Shown: piece after piece, positions 2,839-40,283 of the stretch | How positions within the stretch are numbered: position 1 is the stretch's first letter | Layout: every line of letters starts with the position of its first letter | NCBI GenBank assembly: GCA_963731035.1 | Contig: CAVSUY010000022.1 | Location: forward strand, 4,887-68,886 | Reading direction: 5' to 3' | Source of the DNA: an uncultured Gammaproteobacteria bacterium | GTDB taxonomy: Bacteria > Pseudomonadota > Gammaproteobacteria > Arenicellales > JAANXG01 | DNA length: 64,000 nt | Notes under the pieces: generated by a model | Databases searched by the model: none | Seen by the model: only the letters and a program-made list of their open reading frames with translations | What the model was told of the DNA's origin: nothing | Program-made: the position numbers and the translations under genes

Positions 2839-4131
2839 ATGACCAAACAAAATCTGAAATTCCTGGACCAGCTGTTTCCCGAGTCTGGCGGAGAGGCGTT
2901 TATCAATGATTGGTGGCTCAAGAGATATACTCTCCAGCACGGTGAAGTGTCGCGCTTGCCATCTTGTTTGCAAGCTCCGGACGGAGCAGTTGCCGGTATA
3001 CATTGCCTTGAAAACTGGCGCAAAGGCGACCTTTTTGATGTCGCCGTGGTTGACGACATCGACTATACCCAATACACGGTTCGCGACTTGCCTCCGATGG
3101 CGTTATATCGAGTTGGCGCACCTGTAATGCTAAGTAACCCTCATTATCGCAACAATGAACTTGCCGATTGGGTGACCGGAGTCAGCAGTGAACTCGGTAT
3201 CGCCAACGAATTTGTGACAGTTAATGCCTGGTTCGCGCGAAAGTCCTACGGACTAGGCATGCACTACGACCCAGGTGAAGTCATCCTGATTCAACTGGTT
3301 GGCAACAAACGAATGCAAATTTGTACTAATCAATTCACGACGATGCCGGATACACAATATGAGCTCTGCAAGCCCTGCGAGCAGAGCGAGTTGCCGCTCT
3401 TTGCCAATGGGTTTCCAGAGGGTGAACTGGAAGGCACGGAGGAAATAGAGCTGTACCCCGGGTCCGTACTGGCCATGCCGCGCGGCACTTGGCATAACTC
3501 TCTGGCGATGGATTCAGAATCGATTGCCCTCGCTCTGTTCTTTCGCACGCCGACAGTCGTAAGCCTTGTAATTTCATACTTGCGGGAATTCTTACGGCAG
3601 GATCCACTCTGGCGTACGCCCTTGTTCGGCCTCAAACTGGAAGGTGACAACAGTAAAGATATCCAAGGAGCAATGGACACTATATCAACCAGTTTGCAAA
3701 CTCTTGACAAGTATATCCATGCCATTCACCCGGAGCAGGTGATCGCTCATGCAGAACCGGTGATCAGCCGTATTCATCGACTGAAACAGGCGCCCTATTC
3801 GCTTCAGCGGCTACCTGAAGCCAGTTTATCGATCAAGGCAACGAACAGCGACGCCTGTCAGATAGTCATCCACGCTCGACTGAACATGCAACAGACCAAA
3901 ACCAGCGAGATGGAACTGGATAGCAGCGTAGTCGGAGCACTGGAATGGATATCCGAACATCCAGCGCGATTTACAATAAAGGAAATTGCTTCAGCGTGCC
4001 CGGAATTACCTTTGGATCATATCGAAGGTTTGATTGACGTACTTCTGGAAACAAACTATTTGGCACTTCTGCCTTTCCCATCAATCCAACCCAATGACGG
4101 TTTCTCGAGTTCAGTTGGGGAGCAAAACTGA
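2839..4131 (+). CDS. JmjC/cupin-4-like putative 2OG-Fe(II) oxygenase
   Basis: 430-aa ORF with lower GC than background. HxD...H pattern (GMHYDPGEVILIQLVGNKR ... PRGTWHNS). Confidence 0.7.
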   Translation: MTKQNLKFLDQLFPESGGEAFINDWWLKRYTLQHGEVSRLPSCLQAPDGAVAGIHCLENWRKGDLFDVAVVDDIDYTQYTVRDLPPMALYRVGAPVMLSNPHYRNNELADWVTGVSSELGIANEFVTVNAWFARKSYGLGMHYDPGEVILIQLVGNKRMQICTNQFTTMPDTQYELCKPCEQSELPLFANGFPEGELEGTEEIELYPGSVLAMPRGTWHNSLAMDSESIALALFFRTPTVVSLVISYLREFLRQDPLWRTPLFGLKLEGDNSKDIQGAMDTISTSLQTLDKYIHAIHPEQVIAHAEPVISRIHRLKQAPYSLQRLPEASLSIKATNSDACQIVIHARLNMQQTKTSEMELDSSVVGALEWISEHPARFTIKEIASACPELPLDHIEGLIDVLLETNYLALLPFPSIQPNDGFSSSVGEQN

Positions 4132-4596
4132 ATCAATTCCCGATTGATCCCATTCCTCAAGACTTGCCATTTTCAATCCCAATAAGTCATACCGAACCAT
4201 GAGATAGCCGTCGGCTCTCCTTCTCAAGGCATAAGGGTGGCTGCAAATCAAGTCCTGCGCCATCAACCCTACGTGAGTTTTCTTCGTCGGATCGTTCTTA
4301 TATTGGAATCGATACAGCTGAATTCCATTTTCCGTAACGGATAAAGCCTCAATTTCAGTCTTCAGTCGGATGTCACTCGCGTTTCCGGCATTTCCGGCAT
4401 TCCCCGCGTTTCCAGCATTCCCGGCGTTTCCAGTCGAGTCAGAACTCTCGCTGGTTTGAGCATGGGCCGGGAGAATGACAGAGTCAATAACAGGTTTCTT
4501 CCACCCATTGGTTACTTGAGCAGTTGCCGTCATGACCAATGCACTACTTCCGGCCGTCCGCATCAAACGGCGGCGTTGCAATTGTTTTTTATTCAT
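4111..4596 (-). CDS. secreted protein: RR-containing signal, (GNA)6 linker, peptidase-S74 intramolecular-chaperone domain
   Basis: ATG at 4596 preceded by GGGGGA. Signal region QRRRLMRTAGSSALVMTATA...LPAHA. SDIRLKTEI...VGLMAQDL...MVRYDLL matches the S74 autocleaving chaperone motif. Confidence 0.8.
   Translation of the reverse strand: MNKKQLQRRRLMRTAGSSALVMTATAQVTNGWKKPVIDSVILPAHAQTSESSDSTGNAGNAGNAGNAGNAGNASDIRLKTEIEALSVTENGIQLYRFQYKNDPTKKTHVGLMAQDLICSHPYALRRRADGYLMVRYDLLGLKMASLEEWDQSGIDSVLLPN
4378..4431 (-). repeat. in-frame 9-bp tandem repeat x6 encoding (Gly-Asn-Ala)6
   Basis: Units cgcgtttcc/ggcatttcc/ggcattccc... read directly. Lies inside CDS 4111-4596. Confidence 0.9.
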
Positions 4597-4820: not shown

Positions 4821-5451
4821 TCAGGCATTCAGCCCCCATACGGTATCGAGAACTGTTCGCAGCGCCCTGGTACCGGACGAGGAAAAAAGCCACCCGAGGA
4901 TCCCGCAATTGATAACAACCGTCCCCCAGAACACGATCTGAAACGACCGCTTCCTGGACTTGTGACGAAGCAGCCTTTGCGCCGCCAACGCACCCGGCCA
5001 ACCGCCCACCAGGGCGAACAGGTGCAAGGTGCTCTCCTGGGTCCGCCAGCGATCATTCCTGGCGGCGGACTTGTCGAGCGCATAGGCGACAAATGCCACG
5101 ACGCTGGCGGTGCAGTACAGCCCAAGGACGGCAATCGGCAATTTGCCCGGCGAATACCGCCCCCGCCACGAATACCAGGAACCCGCCGGCCAGCACGAGC
5201 GGGATGCCACTGCGGCCGGATGATGCGTCCGACGGCAATCTCTCGCCAGCGAAAGCAACGCGCTCGGCCTGTGCCCGTCCCTTGGCGTCGGTCCGGAGCT
5301 CGTAGGTCACGACCTCGTCGCCGGCGGGTCTTCGCTGGCGGTTTGCAAACGACTTGATGTGAACGAAGACCTGCTGCCCACCGCCGTTGGGGGCGATGAA
5401 GCCAAAGCCCCTGTCGTCCTTCCAGCTTGTCATTCTGCCCTTGTGTCGCAT
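4821..5451 (-). pseudogene. cold-shock domain + DUF1294 membrane protein, frameshifted near 5145
   Basis: N-terminal frame reads MRHKGRMTSWKDDRGFGFI...VAGAVFAG. C-terminal frame reads KLPIAVLGLYC...DKSAARNDRWRTQESTLH. Span is 631 nt (3n+1), consistent with a 1-nt insertion at gggCaaa. Confidence 0.8.
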
Positions 5452-5563
5452 ACTCGCTCCTCCCGAAGGCTCTGGACGGACGCCGCGCCCGGCCTGACCT
5501 GATCCCAAGCTAAGGCCGACTAACCGAGTCTGCTACCGCAACCACAGGTTGCAACCTGGTGTT

Positions 5564-33299: not shown

Positions 33300-36250
33300 G
33301 ACTGATGCCATCGCGGTATAGATCACGACTGTGGGGTCGCTCATCGCGTACAAGGGCTGATACTCCAGCCTGAAGAAAAGCTCTCTGGTGAGCGAAAGCC
33401 GGTATGTGCCCAGATACGGCTGTACGATCGCGAGCTGATCCACAGCATCCTTTCCGTGGACTTGGCGATGGGACTAGCACGTCTAGGTTGCAGGAGGCGA
33501 TGAGAACCGCTAAGGCGCACACGGCACCACTAGGCTCAATGGATGTGCTCTGGGAAAAGGCATTGCATCTTGTCCCAAGACAACCAATGAAGCGTAGACA
33601 GAACTACTGCAGCTGTACTCGGAGGGGTGATCCTCCGCAATACTGTCTTTGCTCGCCAGTACGAACTAGATGTCGACTAGATCGCTAGCAGGACTACCGT
33701 GAAAAGCGCGTCACTGCGAAAGCTGTTTATGACGGTTCTCGCAGCTAGGAGCTGAACCACTGTCGCGAGAATCAGAACTGGGACTAGGAAACGCTGGCAA
33801 AGCAGGACGACTACGGGAAACAGAAGGTAGAACTGCATCTCCAGTGACAGCGACTAGTGCCGAACAGGATGTTGCGGTACTCACTGTCGCTATACAACAG
33901 CTCAAAGGTATAGTTGGCGAAGTTGAGCAGGCGCTGGCACCGACGATCAGGTTGCTCTTGACTGTTCTCAACGCTCCGGTTTCATTGAACTGCGCCTAGC
34001 ACGAGACCTGCGATACCGTCTACGCTGCGCATGATGCGCTAGATGCGGCGGATCTAGAAGGCTGTGGCGTGTGGTAGAACTGTCTCTTGCTCGATGCGGT
34101 TTGAAGCTGCGAGAGCAAGTGCGTGCGATCTCGAAACTCGAGTGACTAAGAAAAGAGTGACGCTACTGGCGCTTGAACTAGTCGCTGAAAAACTACAGAG
34201 ACTCGGTCTTCTAGTGGAACTGTTTGAGCTTCAGTTGATAGATTATACTAGTACTATCGCGACGGTTAGGAGCACTTCGATGTCGTCAATCTGGGAAGTT
34301 GCGCTGCTTTTTTCAGAGGCGTACATGTCGGTTAGAGCGGCATGGATTGATCTCTTTGGTTGTGAACTATCTAAGCGAGTTCTCTGTATTATATATTCGA
34401 ACTGTGGAGCTAGCTGAGTTACTAGGGGTCGTTTATGTCGGATTATTGATCTTTTGATGAACGACAACGTTTCTTTGTCTATTTGCTTCGGAAAGCTCTG
34501 TGGTAGCGATGGTCTCGGCTCGGGCAGTCGAGACTGTGTGGTGTATTTATCTGAAAGCGCTGCGAGGACTGAGAAACACAGAGGTGGCATCGGATACAGA
34601 GTCGCGTAACGATGATGACTAGCGAGTGCTACGTCATCGCTTTCTCATCTCTCTCGGCTGGCGCGCTCGGTTAGCGCGCTGCTGCTGTGATTTTCACCGG
34701 CTACGACGTCTACGATGATTCGTACAAGACTGACACTTCGGGACGCTGATCGGATAGCTGAACGACTATTCGTTGATCGTGTGTGCTCTGAGCTTACAGC
34801 GCTTACTGTCTGATATTAACTGACTAAAGCGATAGCGAGATCGCTGCAATTATATCTCTCTGTTAGAGCGCTACGACACTGTTAGAAAGAACTATGACTG
34901 CTATAGAGAAATCGAGCTTGCTTCAGTGCTGTATACGTGGACAGCTACTATCTTTGCTTCTCTCGGTAAAGCTCGTAGAGCTATTTCTCAGCGCTGGGGT
35001 TTCGAATCTCACTGAAATCGGCGACAGTGTTTGCTGCGCGTGCTGGACTTCTGCTGATCGGGTGAGTGCTTTAGCTTTTGAGAAGTTTTGTACTGCTAGA
35101 AGATTGAAGAACTTAGAAGAATGCTGACAGAGCTATGATTCTGCTGCTAAAGCGAATTGATATGCATCAATTTTTCTATGTATTACTAAATATAAGAGCA
35201 ATTAAGTTAGATTAGATTGCTCTGCGACTTAGTCAGAGCTAAGAAACGATCTATTCTGAGAAACGATAGCAATTTCAATAAAGTGATATATGTGATAGAA
35301 ATCTTAGATCAGCTACATTTCTCTGCGATTTCGGAGTACTTTGCGAGCGACTCTATTGAACTACTGCAATTGCTGATAGAGCGCGTAGCGCTGATTCTGT
35401 CGATTAGTACTATGCTAGAGATCTACGCTGCGCTGAGAACAAACTCGCTATCTTAGTGTCTGTTGACTTGTGAGCTCTACTCGCATCTTCTGAGTAACAG
35501 CTGAATGCTGAGTATTAATTCGAAGTGCTGAGCGCTTTCTGCTTAACGCACCGCTTCTACGACGACGCTACTCTGTTCTTCTAGACCGACGCTCTCGATC
35601 TCATACTGCTGCGCATGTCTGAGAGCTAGCGAAAATAAAACGTTTATATGCTAAGTGCTATTAATAGCTGTAGATCTGAACTCAACTTCTTATTGCAACT
35701 AGCTAGCGAACACTACTTTCTTCTTCCTAGACTACTCTGCGATGTGTCTGCTCAAACAATCGCGGATTTCTTGATCCTAGCGTAGTGCTCATCGCGCTGA
35801 GCTGAGACGCTCATACAGAACTGATCTCTGCTGAAAATAAGTACAAATTAAACTCTTAGCGCTACACAGATCTACGCTCTTCGAATCTCCCACTCTCTAC
35901 TGAGACAGCTTGTGCGACTATAACTGAGAGAGCTTCGCAGAGTTTTCTAAAAATATTACAAAACTACGCTAACGACACGGACACCGATTACTCTCTGTGT
36001 CCGCTGCACGCGCTAACTGTTAGCGCGCTACTGAGAAACTCACACCGTAGCTACGCACTCTAGAGCTAGCTCTATCCGTTACTGCGCTATCTTGCTCATA
36101 GCTGCGACGCTGAGAAGACCGCTCTCTATTGCACTGAGCTGAGCTGACCCGAATACAGCTATACTTCGATCTCAAAGCTTCCTGCCGATATTGAACGCAC
36201 GATCGCTATTCGAACTGCCAAACTCACGGCCCGACTCAACAGTGAACCGA
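33300..36250. other. ORF-free, compositionally graded tract (GC minimum ~32% near 35.2 kb; CTAG-rich; GG/CC-poor)
   Basis: No ORF >117 aa in six frames, and all three stop codons occur in all frames. Dinucleotide and tetranucleotide hand counts are given in the findings. Confidence 0.8.
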
Positions 36251-37228: not shown

Positions 37229-37319
37229 AGCACTGCTCGCCGGCGGCTGTCTCCACAAGCTCCAGCAACCGACGACGCGCACGGCGAGCGGATGTCTCCA
37301 CCCCGTGAGGCGGAGGAAC

Positions 37320-37901
37320 ATGGTCGAAATTCGGACACGAACGCCAAGCCAAACGCGCCTACCTGGTTCTGGGAGCGGAGTCCAGCGGCACGCACATGGT
37401 GACCGAGCTGTTGATCAGCGCGGGCTGCATTGGCCATGCCGGTGATCACATCGATTGGCAGATCGACCAGCGGGAGCTGCCGAGGACGGATTTCGGCTCT
37501 GGGAGTCCGTCGTGCCCACCGCCAGCAGCCGTGGGATCCGAGCTGCCCCATGACCAGACTCCCATCGTCTGGCGCTAGAGCTCCCCCACGGTGGCGATCG
37601 GGTGGACATCTCCGGGTTGATACAGTTGCTCGAGGAGCGGGGCTATTCGGTCACGACTGTGGTGATCACCCGCTACCGCCACGCCACGATCCAGTCGCAG
37701 CTCAAATGGCGTCATGCCGCCGATGCCACGGCGGCCGCCGCCGCGATCGATCGTGCCACCAGGCATATACCCGCTCATCTCGACAGATGCGCCGCGGATT
37801 TCACCCGGGTGACATACGAGATTCTGGTGCGCGATCCCGGCGCTCGCGAGACCTTGCTGTCGTCGCTGCGCCTCGTGGTGCCTAGCGGTTGGCGCCTGTG
37901 A
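37320..37901 (+). pseudogene. P-loop (sulfotransferase/kinase-like) small protein with two compensating frameshifts (near 37350 and 37575)
   Basis: MVEIRTRTPSQ / KRAYLVLGAESSGTHMVTELLISAGC...TPIVWR / ELPHGGDRVDISGLIQLLEERGYSVTTVVITRYRHATIQSQ. Confidence 0.6.
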
Positions 37902-38068
37902 GAGAAGACAACACAAAATGGGACGCAACGGACGCGGGCGGGCCGGTGGAGGGTTTTCCGGCCGCCGAAGCGCAGATACCGCTCGACGGATTTCCCGAAT
38001 GGAGCTTCGCCTGCCAGCACGCCTTGAGGCGGAACTATCTCGAGTGCGCTCACTAGGGCTGTAAGCGC

Positions 38069-38816
38069 ATGAAGGAGTCCACGGTCATGCTGTGCGGGTT
38101 GGCGCGAGACGTTGAAAGATATCTTGACCCGGTCATTGCCCGCGTTGAGCGATTCGGCCGCTGCTTTGCGAACTACAGGGTGGCGGTATATGAGAACGAT
38201 TCACGCGATTCGACGGCCGCCCGGCTTCAGCGGTGGAGAGAGGAAAACGAACGCGTAGTGGTTCTCAATGAAACCCGGGGCGTCTCTGCGTGGCCAGTTG
38301 GCACTTCCCCTGAGCGCATGGGGCACATGGCGCAATGCAGGAATCGGTATGGAGCTCGCCGGCGATACCTGCCCGGCGGCCGACTTCGTCGTCGTGTTGG
38401 ACATGGACCTGCCGCAGGGATTCAGCTACGAGGGAATCGCCAACACGTTCGGCGATTCGGAGTGGGACATCGTCGGGTCCAACGGTATACTGTTCGCGCC
38501 GGCCGGGGGGATGCCGCTGGGCAGGCGCGACTCTTCGATATGGGCGTTCAGGACAGACGAGTATCCGGACGGGTCGGCATTGGAGATGGTGAACGCGCTC
38601 CGTTTCGAGCGAGGAGAGCCTCTGGTCCCGGTGCGCTCGTGCTTCGGCGGCCTGTGTGTTTACCGCGCGCCGGCTTTCTTCTGCGGCGAACGGTACGATG
38701 GCGGGGACTGTGAGCACGTCGTGTTCCATGAAGCTCTGAGGCGCCGCGGGTATGATCGCCAATTCCTGAATCCGAGCCAGATCGTACTTTACACGGGACC
38801 AGACAAAGCGGGATGA
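38069..38816 (+). pseudogene. GT-A-fold-like transferase, frameshifted near 38348
   Basis: MKESTVMLCGLARDVERYL...VAVYENDSRDST...AQCRNRY, then MELAGDTCPAADFVVVLDMDL...CFGGLCVYR. Span is 748 nt (3n+1). Family call is inference. Confidence 0.6.
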
Positions 38817-39571
38817 ATGCTCATCCACAACAGATTCATGAACTCAGCTCGCCGCGCTACGGCTCCCACTGCTGCGAACCTCGCTCGATTGTCACCCGCA
38901 GATCGAATGCCATACCGAGGTATTCAATCCGGACTTCACCGTGTTCGCCCCGTATGATCGCGCCACTCCCGCGGTAAAGATCTCGATAATCACATCTTCG
39001 GCACACGGCCGTCCGAAATCCAATCGGTGGGCTTCTTACTGCATAGAAGCGCGCCAACTTCGGCGCCTGGCAGGACCTGTGGCCCCGGCTGGAGAAGGAT
39101 GATGCCCTGCGCATCGTCAGCCTGCGGCGCGAGAACCTGCTGCGCCGTTACCTGTCTTATCTCACCATGAAAGAGCCGCGCGAGCGCAAGCTCCATCCAC
39201 GGACACTGGATCCCGTGGAGTTGGAGGCGGAGTTCGAGGCGCGCCACAGTGAAATCACATCGTTCGACGAACGCTTCGCGGGCCATCCGCTGCTGGTCGT
39301 GACCTACGAGCAGCTGTGCCACGACCACGCCAACACCCTCGAGGCTGTGCAGCACTTCCTGTCAGTGCCGGTGACGGACCTGGCTCCGCACACCAACCGC
39401 AATCCGCGCCTGGATCTCAGGTCGGCGATTTCGAACTACGACGCCCTCCGCGCCCACTTCGAGCACACGCCCTGGGCGGGATTCTTTGACGACAGACCGG
39501 AGCCCCCGGTTGACCAGATCAAGTTCGGTGGATACACGGGACGCATCACCATTGCTTCCTCTGGCGACTGA
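38813..39571 (+). pseudogene. sulfotransferase with at least 2 frame changes and an in-frame TAG
   Basis: MNAHPQQIHELSSPRYGS / LLRTSLDCHPQIECHTEVFNPDF / ...SVGFLLH / NFGAWQDLWPRLEKDDALRIVSLRRENLLRRYLS...LLVVTYEQL...FLSV. ATGA overlap with the previous gene. Confidence 0.6.
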
Positions 39572-39603: not shown

Positions 39604-40068
39604 TTGGAGGCCGCGTCCCCGGGAATATCCCCTATGAATGATCCTGAGCCGGGGTCTCTTTATGTGCCGTATCTAACCGACAACTTCTGGGAAGAAACCG
39701 CACTCGACCGCTTCCGCTACGATACGTTCGTGGAAACAGGGAGTTACAGAGGGTTCGTGCTTGAGTTCATGAAAACCCGATTCAGGTTCATTGACAGCAT
39801 CGAGCTTTCGAATAGATGGTATGAGTTTTGCCGGGAAAAGTTCAGGAATGATGCGCATATGTATTTGCATCAGTTTGAGTACAACTGGACCGGTATCACA
39901 CTGGAGAGGGTACTGGGTCTGATGAAGCCGGGTTATGGGTGCTTGGAGAACGCACAATCCCGGTATACAGTGACACCTCGCGAGGACCAGTTGATCTTCT
40001 ATCCTCTTGGGGACCGGGCGTTCTTCGAGCGACGAGGAGCGGGGTGTAACGGCTGGGGAGGCTTCTAG
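39604..40068 (+). CDS. hypothetical protein with methyltransferase-like N-terminal motif, possibly degraded
   Basis: DTFVETGSYRGFVLEFM...IDSIELS resembles class I/FkbM-type MTases. Downstream motifs not found. Confidence 0.35.
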   Translation: MEAASPGISPMNDPEPGSLYVPYLTDNFWEETALDRFRYDTFVETGSYRGFVLEFMKTRFRFIDSIELSNRWYEFCREKFRNDAHMYLHQFEYNWTGITLERVLGLMKPGYGCLENAQSRYTVTPREDQLIFYPLGDRAFFERRGAGCNGWGGF

Positions 40069-40283
40069 GCGCCGATCGAGAAGGCCTGGCTGGTGGTGCC
40101 CCTGAGCCCGTGGGTGGCGATGACGGAGCTTCTCGCATGAGCCGGCAGCGTAACGGATTCGATGATGGGCCTCACCCAGCGCGTCGGTACCGTCGTACCC
40201 GCGAACAGCGAAGCGGCGAGCAGAGTCCGGCGAACGTGCTTGTGATCGAAAGATCCATCGCCCTTTTTAGACTTTTCTTTCAT
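40065..40283 (-). CDS. small secreted peptide precursor sharing the leader of the 4111-4596 protein
   Basis: 72 aa. HVRRTLLAASLFAGTTVPTRWVRPIIESVTLPAHA then a 22-aa tail. The motif W-x-[KR]-P-[VI]-I-[DE]-S-V-x-L-P-A-H-A is shared. Confidence 0.5.
   Translation of the reverse strand: MKEKSKKGDGSFDHKHVRRTLLAASLFAGTTVPTRWVRPIIESVTLPAHARSSVIATHGLRGTTSQAFSIGA

Follow-up and report, generated by a model that had tools for sequence, protein, structure and literature searches.

A Tat-like leader with a sharply conserved motif in two small proteins of an Arenicellales bacterium, and its linkage to PqqD-like domains in related loci

What is the function of the N-terminal leader shared by two small proteins that are encoded in the same 64,000-nucleotide stretch of DNA? 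This stretch, hereafter the window (assembly GCA_963731035.1, contig CAVSUY010000022.1, positions 4,887 to 68,886), belongs to an uncultured gammaproteobacterium of the order Arenicellales, and coordinates without a locus name are positions within it. Translation of the window confirmed both open reading frames (ORFs) at the coordinates given in a preliminary description of the sequence, and both lie on the minus strand: one (4111..4596, stop codon 4111-4113) codes for a protein of 161 amino acids (aa) composed of the leader, a Ser-rich linker, a (GNA)6 run and a peptidase S74 domain, and the other (40065..40283, stop codon 40065-40067) codes for a 72-aa protein composed of the leader and a 22-aa tail. 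The leader marks the N-termini of a large protein family that lacks annotation and is found mainly in Arenicellales, the order to which the window belongs. With moderate confidence, we propose that it would serve both as a docking site for cytoplasmic modification of Ser/Thr residues and as a twin-arginine translocation (Tat) signal removed after the residues A-H-A.

The leader and its family

In the 161-aa protein, the n- and h-regions of a putative Tat-like signal cover aa 1-31 (MNKKQLQRRRLMRTAGSSALVMTATAQVTNG; 4504..4596, minus strand). They are followed by the conserved c-region motif W32-A46 (WKKPVIDSVILPAHA; 4459..4503, minus strand), a putative docking site for a recognition element (RRE) of the kind that binds precursors of peptides made by the ribosome and modified after translation (RiPPs), with a putative signal-peptidase site between AHA and QTS. 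In the 72-aa protein the motif spans W36-A50 (WVRPIIESVTLPAHA; 40134..40178, minus strand). The segments WKKPVIDSVILPAHAQTS and WVRPIIESVTLPAHARSS are identical at 11 of 18 positions by direct count, as first described. An RR pair is present in both leaders, within QRRRLMR before TAGSSALVMTATAQVTNG and within VRRTLL before AASLFAGTTVPT, the h-region that follows being uncharged; the signal region is thus RR-containing in both proteins, as had been stated, and is Tat-like by the family consensus RRxxLK, and the motif does terminate in an A-H-A of the AxA type. When the motif pattern was searched in the six frames of the window, matches were confined to these two ORFs, and among 1,119 stop-to-stop window ORFs the leader hidden Markov model (HMM) gave E-values of 4e-22 (161 aa) and 3.7e-13 (72 aa), the next best being 0.68. 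Chance similarity of the two leaders was rejected on these values and on the family-wide exhaustive search described below. The two genes are not a recent DNA duplicate, since the DNA of their 15-codon motif core is identical at only 29 of 45 positions. A longer in-frame reading of the S74 gene would give 209 aa (start 4740); its orthologs start at MNKK, as does the 161-aa form, and a Shine-Dalgarno-like GGGGGA box lies 7 nt 5' of the ATG of the latter. No Rfam match was obtained on the window, and promoter and terminator scans of it gave nothing informative.

The leader is not limited to two small proteins, as it had first seemed to be: the HMM search recovered a family of thousands of proteins, mostly of 150-220 aa and with unrelated cargos. 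Indeed, a profile of five leaders retrieved 238 protein matches in a word-indexed search, and when an HMM was run exhaustively over 1.84 billion cluster representatives, it matched 4,676 with E<=1e-3, of which 1,835 with E<=1e-10. Each of the 150 best representatives has the match at its N-terminus, with a start within the first 45 residues; about three quarters of them are 150-220 aa long. LPAHA is present in all 123 retrieved leader-bearing sequences, and the residues after AHA are Q (87/123), T at +2 (79/123) and S/T at +3 (122/123), so that the family consensus reads W-x-[KR]-P-V-[VI]-[DE]-S-V-x-L-P-A-H-A, then Q-T-[ST]. In an alignment of 52 leaders, W, L, P, A, H and A are invariant, the Pro after W-x-x is conserved in at least 90% of the sequences and the RR pair is nearly or fully invariant (R conserved in at least 90% of them or in all). 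Across 106 leader copies, codon-position entropy was 0.59, 0.35 and 1.67 bits at positions 1, 2 and 3, i.e. third positions are near saturation and positions 1 and 2 are fixed. This demonstrates selection on the protein sequence; an element at the DNA or RNA level was consequently rejected as the source of the conservation, and the leader is a genuine signal, conserved in the protein. It is covered by no Pfam or NCBIfam model, in agreement with the initial remark, in which it was not recognised as a described signal, and no paper describing it was found in literature searches on LPAHA or on Arenicellales combined with twin-arginine. It was not found in 2.9 million viral contigs either.

When one genome was scanned for each of 185,579 species, 135 leader sites were confirmed, of which the best 80, in 36 genomes and totalling 1.13 Mb, are referred to here as the leader loci. 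They belong mostly to metagenome-assembled genomes of Arenicellales or of unclassified Gammaproteobacteria; the few genomes named otherwise (Parasphingorhabdus, Desulfobulbaceae, Pseudomonadales, 'Marine bacterium B5-7') may result from mis-binning. The window is itself of the Arenicellales lineage, since its Lhr helicase clusters at 90% identity with a protein of an 'Arenicellales bacterium'. Genomes have up to 8 leader loci, and tandem arrays comprise up to 7 genes in one locus: L067 (9905-19510) has seven paralogs, of which three lie on one strand and four on the opposite one, with tails of about 100-115 aa and a C-terminal Cys. The typical genomic leader protein is about 200 aa long, most members being of 150-400 aa. 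From 104 leader proteins, 95 tails of at least 40 aa were obtained, which fall into 57 unrelated clusters; cargo domains include CHRD, ALK_LTK glycine-rich and S74. Short leader-plus-tail genes are a minority in genomes and were the majority in the five-leader profile search, in which many come from contigs of less than 1 kb and are possibly truncated. In addition, a GMC oxidoreductase and a Gluconate_2-dh3 protein (Tat-signal small subunit) are encoded as a pair next to leader genes in L010, L023, L025, L031, L053, L068 and L070, and one cargo cluster is common to the leader proteins beside this pair in five of these seven loci (L010, L023, L031, L053, L070); these cargos possibly form a third subunit or serve as substrate.

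The Tat-like parts of the leader are its RRxLLK n-region and its Gly/Ala-rich h-region. The curated TAT model TIGR01409 (cut-off 16.7 bits) was passed by four of seven typical members (P0013, 18.3 bits; P0036, 22.0; P0099, 23.1; P0116, 21.1), with 15.0-15.4 bits for P0022 and P0031 and no match for P0014, and two family members carry TAT-type names at NCBI. The c-region of about 20 residues is unusually long, and its conservation exceeds by far the need of a signal-peptidase site. Furthermore, the motif recurs inside the cargos. AHA was counted 37 times in 29 of the 104 tails, against 1.1 expected from shuffling. Among 132 representative tails, 23 contain it (0.8 expected), mostly 28-47 residues downstream of the first AHA. 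The internal copies follow the pattern hydrophobic-hydrophobic-D/E-x-hydrophobic-hydrophobic-x-P-A-H-A, in the same register as in the leader; a second and sometimes a third copy, of the form ϕϕ[DE]xϕϕ(P)xAHA[GAQ], was observed within cargos of L002, L023, L028, L040, L047, L058 and L070. The 161-aa protein itself ends in an echo of the motif (W149-P160; 4117..4152, minus strand), WDQSGIDSVLLP against WKKPVIDSVILP, identical at 7 of 12 positions, a value reached by none of 5,000 shuffles; the echo is also present in the ortholog P0001, with an I/V co-change. In the tentative, secretome-wide form of leader-directed modification described below, such repeated copies would be second docking sites.

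These features also bear on two alternatives. The leader could be a plain lineage-specific Tat (or Sec) signal, the c-region of which serves export and processing only, with the PqqD domains and transferases described in the next section acting on other substrates or on a few T-rich members. The matches to the TAT model and the ordinary, secreted-looking domains of the cargos agree with such a signal; however, a 15-residue c-region with six invariant positions (W, L-P-A-H-A) and a near-invariant Pro across thousands of unrelated proteins exceeds the -3/-1 rule, and the return of the motif inside cargos is likewise not what a plain signal would lead one to expect. Alternatively, the leader could be an N-terminal sorting or anchoring tag, retained in the membrane or handled by a dedicated protease or transpeptidase, that exposes T/P-rich stalks and small domains at the surface of the cell. 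PEP-CTERM/exosortase systems are analogous lineage-specific tags, and the multi-copy, lineage-restricted occurrence, the diverse cargos and the T/P-rich linkers that often follow the leader would suit a tag of this kind, for which the repeated ϕϕDxϕϕPxAHA motifs could be processing sites. Nevertheless, clustering of all ORFs in the 80 leader loci revealed no recurrent peptidase, transporter or sortase-like neighbour (ABC-type ORFs were unrelated neighbours), so the dedicated peptidase or transporter that had been suggested as a possible companion was not found there, and the short Gly/Ala-rich h-region is typical of cleavable Tat signals and not of anchors. A sorting tag is regarded as improbable.

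PqqD-like domains and modifying enzymes near leader genes

Seventeen ORFs with a PqqD domain are encoded within 14 of the 80 leader loci, at a median distance of 681 bp from the leader motif. The domain occurs either free (90 aa; Pfam PqqD, E 2.4e-16) or fused to (i) a polysaccharide pyruvyl transferase (PS_pyruv_trans), (ii) a family 2 glycosyltransferase (GT2), (iii) a GT2-TPR-GT25 arrangement or (iv) a GT8 with a weak MetW-type methyltransferase-like region. Around it, leader loci encode an HprK-like+GT2 fusion, NTP_transf_5, sulfotransferases, a GT11 and a Core-2/I-branching enzyme. The genes of L023 and L031 are arranged as three to four leader genes, GMC, Gluconate_2-dh3, HprK-like+GT2, PqqD, sulfotransferase and two further leader genes. 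In L106, the leader gene, NTP_transf_5, PqqD and HprK-like+GT2 follow each other on one strand, the leader gene ending 21 nt before NTP_transf_5 and the PqqD ORF overlapping the genes on either side. The leader gene of L131 and L135 is followed by an HtrL/YibB-like gene and by a GT60 'GlcNAc' transferase (polypeptide O-GlcNAc-transferase family PF11397) fused to PqqD. In a reciprocal search starting from PqqD, 29 metagenome loci of 5 kb or more were obtained, and 13 of them contain a leader ORF (E 1e-9 to 1e-23). These PqqD-anchored leader loci were sampled from soil, wetland and sediment, and the tails encoded in them consist of T-rich or P/T-rich repeats; short genes with a leader and a T-rich tail share clusters with the enzymes there and, in L106, stand directly upstream of them in one operon.

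To our knowledge, peptide binding is the sole established role of PqqD-type domains. In the mechanism that we favour, a cytoplasmic PqqD-like (RRE) domain would dock on the conserved c-region of the leader. This domain stands alone or is joined to a glycosyl- or pyruvyl-transferase, and its usual companions are an HprK-like kinase, an NTP_transf_5 enzyme and sulfotransferases; the enzymes thereby recruited would decorate the Ser/Thr-rich stretch after the motif. The modified protein would then be exported by Tat, which tolerates folded or bulky cargo, and signal peptidase I would cut off the whole leader after A-H-A, so that no dedicated leader peptidase or transporter would be needed. The window would contain two minimal members, namely the 72-aa gene as an acceptor and the 161-aa gene, in which the S74 domain may be a removable folded carrier. 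Elsewhere, the HprK-type kinase PsmK phosphorylates a Ser in the precursor of a RiPP, and the addition of a hexose to the phosphate depends on the NTP-transferase-like PsmN (PMC6993621); fusions of RRE and GT2, as well as RRE systems with Sec signals on the precursors, have been noted bioinformatically (PMC12710340).

Several results weigh against this mechanism. Homologs of PqqD, HprK-like and NTP_transf_5 proteins are absent from the 64-kb window, no PqqD homolog from its 620-kb contig appears among the best 120 matches, and no PqqD is encoded within 10 kb at 66 of the 80 leader loci. The four PqqD homologs examined on long contigs all lie in a bare PqqD / HprK-like / NTP_transf_5 cassette, with no leader gene within 10 kb and with relA or other housekeeping genes as neighbours. 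The proteins of the cassette also score below the curated cut-offs of the HPr-rel-A system (TIGR04352, HprK-related kinase A, 200 bits; TIGR04353, PqqD, 35 bits), with 66-97 bits for the HprK-like proteins and 27.5 bits, or no listing, for the PqqD protein. Neither window protein matches TIGR01409, the AHA lies about 20 residues past the h-region, which is far for signal peptidase I, and the tail of the 72-aa protein is only moderately rich in Ser/Thr. Two of the four genomes with bare cassettes carry leader genes elsewhere; together with the leader loci that lack PqqD, the bare cassettes indicate that adjacency of leader and PqqD is frequent and not the rule. Literature searches on HPr-rel-A, and on RiPP combined with twin-arginine and glycosyltransferase, found nothing relevant and no published target of HPr-rel-A.

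The scarcity of RRE genes near most leader genes and the existence of cassettes without leader genes are also what a plain export signal would predict. On the other hand, PqqD domains concentrate beside leaders and the reciprocal search recovers leaders in other lineages, so that a plain signal, in view of these results and of the excess conservation of the c-region, is considered rather unlikely. As for the early hunch that the leader could be a RiPP signal, it gains from the genetic linkage to PqqD-like domains in related loci, the window itself contributing no PqqD to it. The family has the conserved leader and hypervariable core of RiPP precursors; it departs from them in product size (below about 10 kDa in RiPPs), most members being of 150-400 aa, and the window genes, with predicted products of 27 and 22 aa, fit only if both cleavages take place. 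The docking function proposed for the leader could have a wider form, which is put forward tentatively: the leader would mark the whole secretome (dozens of proteins per genome, thousands of clusters) for phospho-, glyco- or sulfo-modification before export. Signal peptidase would then act as leader peptidase, protein glycosylation in these Gram-negatives would obey a RiPP logic, and S74 mini-proteins would be self-cleaving carriers of small modified peptides; this extension is as tentative as the marking of the secretome itself.

Three other observations were made on PqqD loci. Firstly, another Tat-type leader, RREFLRKAAxTGAVAWAxPVIQTVAAxPAxA, followed by Cys-rich cores, is encoded in L134, L147, L148, L150, L152-L154, L156, L161, L163 and L164, and these proteins probably form a sister precursor family with a diverged Tat leader. 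Secondly, an AraC-type helix-turn-helix regulator fused to a PqqD domain (L122, 19-975) adjoins three leader genes and may be a peptide-sensing regulator. Thirdly, the PqqD proteins of L171-L174, P0291, P0359, P0379 and P0389 are named 'pyrroloquinoline quinone biosynthesis peptide chaperone PqqD' at NCBI; no pqq gene lies less than 10 kb from the PqqD / HprK-like / NTP_transf_5 cassettes that encode them, and the name is probably an over-annotation from a borderline TIGR03859 score.

The S74 mini-protein and the 72-aa gene

The C-terminal part of the 161-aa protein (aa 74-161; 4114..4377, minus strand), with a Ser74-Lys79 dyad in SDIRLK, had been described as a peptidase S74 / intramolecular-chaperone auto-processing domain, and this assignment holds. 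Indeed, (i) Pfam Peptidase_S74 (PF13884) matches aa 74-116 (E 6.6e-9, 36.4 bits for a cut-off of 22), (ii) S74, D75, R77, L78 and K79 are invariant in an alignment of 10 sequences and (iii) an AlphaFold2 model of aa 75-156, with a predicted local distance difference test score of about 90, matches phage models named 'intramolecular chaperone auto-processing domain' in BFVD (E 5e-6 to 1e-3), with root-mean-square deviations of 1-3 A over short alignments of 62-74 columns to targets of 300-1,500 aa. Sequence and fold searches of the PDB with the S74 protein gave no matches, so that only predicted viral models match this monomer model of an obligate trimer.

The absence of a fibre-like cargo, pointed out at the beginning, was also confirmed, as the minimal architecture recurs in three metagenomic orthologs (P0001-P0003, 54-66% identical), in which the leader, the start and the end are kept. 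The domain is separated from the leader by 27 residues up to Ser74 (6-45 in the orthologs) and is not the C-terminus of a large trimeric fibre. The putative acceptor or linker (4378..4458, minus strand) is hypervariable and consists of QTSESSDST (aa 47-55) and (GNA)6 (aa 56-73; 4378-4431). It is unalignable among orthologs, the leader and the S74 domain being conserved in the four species-level variants, and the minimal architecture is thus maintained and does not result from a fresh deletion. A cargo-less state is, however, not the general condition of leader-bearing S74 proteins, since L040, L053 and L076 encode relatives with the leader, a real cargo of 150-200 aa and S74. The (GNA)6 run is a 9/18-bp tandem repeat (4382-4433, Tandem Repeats Finder), missing in P0001 and absent or replaced among orthologs. 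Distant S74 proteins keep 'GNAGNA' immediately in front of SD.RLK, which suggests that the run arose by a recent 9-bp slippage expansion of a conserved pre-cleavage motif. A collagen triple-helix stalk was rejected for it (PF01391, 13.4 bits for a cut-off of 27.2; run not conserved in orthologs). The lengths of 27 and 22 aa predicted earlier for the products of the two genes are arithmetically right, and they are conditional on putative cleavages after AHA and before S74. With low confidence, the S74 domain could serve as a trimeric carrier that removes itself from a short modified peptide. When the S74 protein was looked up exactly under five possible starts, and likewise the contig of the JmjC protein mentioned hereafter, no record was returned.

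Small S74 proteins without the leader are represented by P0005, P0006 and P0010, which by eye share an IPTL-CTERM-like mid-protein segment upstream of GNAGNA-SD.RLK; P0005 has a precomputed IPTL-CTERM (PF18203) match. A 430-aa JmjC_2/cupin-like protein is encoded at 2839-4131 on the plus strand, convergent with the S74 gene and overlapping it by 21 bp. As a partner of the S74 protein it was rejected, as it is not encoded beside the orthologs P0001 and P0003, the contigs of which are only about 1.5 kb long.

The 72-aa gene has a nucleotide-identical copy on four other assemblies and a syntenic ortholog of 75 aa (P0012), from which it differs by 21 synonymous and 21 non-synonymous codon changes, with a conserved frame and stop region. 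Its tail (RSSVIATHGLRGTTSQAFSIGA; 40068..40133, minus strand), a putative mature peptide or acceptor with 8 Ser/Thr among 22 residues, has kept part of its sequence in P0012 (with 5 synonymous and 7 non-synonymous changes). The gene adjoins sulfotransferase, CAP59-like and GT1 genes, among which the sulfotransferase-like and CAP59-mannosyltransferase-like genes (37302..39571, plus strand) are convergent with it and are uncertain members of the system. The order Lhr, small gene, sulfotransferase is kept in the ortholog locus L165, and the sulfotransferase and glycosyltransferase gene types found here recur in RRE clusters elsewhere. The 72-aa gene would fit a short acceptor peptide.

Decay is the alternative for both window genes, which would then be functionless remnants of full-length members. 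It agrees with the length of most genomic members (150-400 aa), with apparent frameshifts in several neighbouring window genes and with the weak constraint on the 72-aa tail. Nevertheless, only the linker varies between the 161-aa protein and its three orthologs, the 72-aa gene keeps its frame and stop region in a syntenic ortholog and is identical in four other assemblies, and PqqD-anchored loci hold short genes with a leader and a T-rich tail amid enzymes; decay seems to have a low probability, some of which is left for the 72-aa gene.

Regarding the surroundings, the genes at 37302-39571 (plus strand) are split into several ORFs in the window and are intact in close relatives, in L081 as a 254-aa sulfotransferase and a 502-aa CAP59-like protein. 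Compared with the window, L081 shows 93.6% identity and 47 gap positions, and L083 shows 98% and 27. At 4821-5508 (minus strand), a cold-shock-domain ORF (5053-5508) and a DUF1294 ORF (4821-5258) overlap in different frames. These split or overlapping ORFs look like assembly indels or real frameshifts. Finally, a region of about 2.6 kb (33500-36150) has no ORF longer than 117 aa, a GC content of 42-49% (62% for the window), no Rfam match and no tandem repeat.

Significance and comparison with known systems

Tat signals and RiPP-type leader recognition are already known, and this leader family is an unannotated and widespread variant. Even on a conservative reading, it is a very large and strongly conserved N-terminal signal family that merits a curated model. 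If the leader does direct modification, the field of protein export signals would meet that of RiPP leader recognition, from which it is usually kept separate, and leader-guided modification would extend from small peptides to ordinary secreted proteins. The family would also provide candidate substrates for the PqqD / HprK-like / NTP_transf_5 cassette, which is related to HPr-rel-A, a sequence tag for annotating part of the secretome in a lineage common in marine sediments and sponges, and a portable tag for directing glycosylation in engineered systems.

S74 domains normally stand at the C-terminus of large phage tail-fibre or endosialidase proteins. The 161-aa protein resembles the S74 domains of endosialidases, phage tail fibres and MYRF in its Pfam match, its Ser-Lys dyad in SDxRxK and its fold. 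It differs from them in having 27 non-leader residues before the domain instead of a large trimeric fibre, and in its Tat-like leader and C-terminal leader echo; in addition, leader-S74 proteins are cellular and not phage-borne, as judged from the viral contigs searched.

Serine-rich adhesins are glycosylated before export by the accessory Sec system. The leader family has in common with these serine-rich-repeat glycoproteins of Gram-positive bacteria an extended, atypical signal with a conserved motif and a Ser/Thr-rich region, which is glycosylated in the cytoplasm in the adhesins and is proposed to be modified there in the leader proteins. The two differ in route (SecA2/Y2 against Tat-like), in cell envelope (Gram-positive against Gram-negative) and in enzymes, and RRE domains are found only in the leader system.

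Tat leaders are held by cytoplasmic chaperones such as TorD and DmsD, and the DmsA signal also ends in A-H-A. The TorA/TorD and DmsA/DmsD pairs thus resemble the present case in the RR n-region, the mildly hydrophobic h-region and a cytoplasmic partner that holds the signal until maturation. TorD-family chaperones, however, serve cofactor insertion into one enzyme, whereas the candidate binder is PqqD-like here and the leader heads thousands of unrelated cargos.

The RiPP RRE systems with an HprK-type kinase and an NTP-transferase (the lasso peptides paeninodin and pseudomycoidin, with PsmK and PsmN) and HPr-rel-A are alike in having a conserved N-terminal segment followed by a hypervariable region, free or fused PqqD-like domains, and HprK-like and NTP_transf_5 proteins in one cassette. 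In contrast to the lasso-peptide systems, the leader family has neither a lasso cyclase nor a leader protease, its substrates are mostly full-size proteins and its leader is of the Tat type; from HPr-rel-A (TIGR04352, TIGR04353) it differs in the sub-threshold scores of its cassette proteins. DUF2282/bufferin-type precursors with DUF2063 RRE partners also have an export signal at the N-terminus of an RRE-associated precursor, and in both cases export and the general signal peptidase could replace a dedicated protease or transporter (PMC12710340). The bufferin-type precursors have Sec signals and no specific recognition motif (PMC12710340), and their linked enzymes are MNIO oxidases, whereas the leader family combines a Tat-like signal, a sharply conserved motif and linked transferases.

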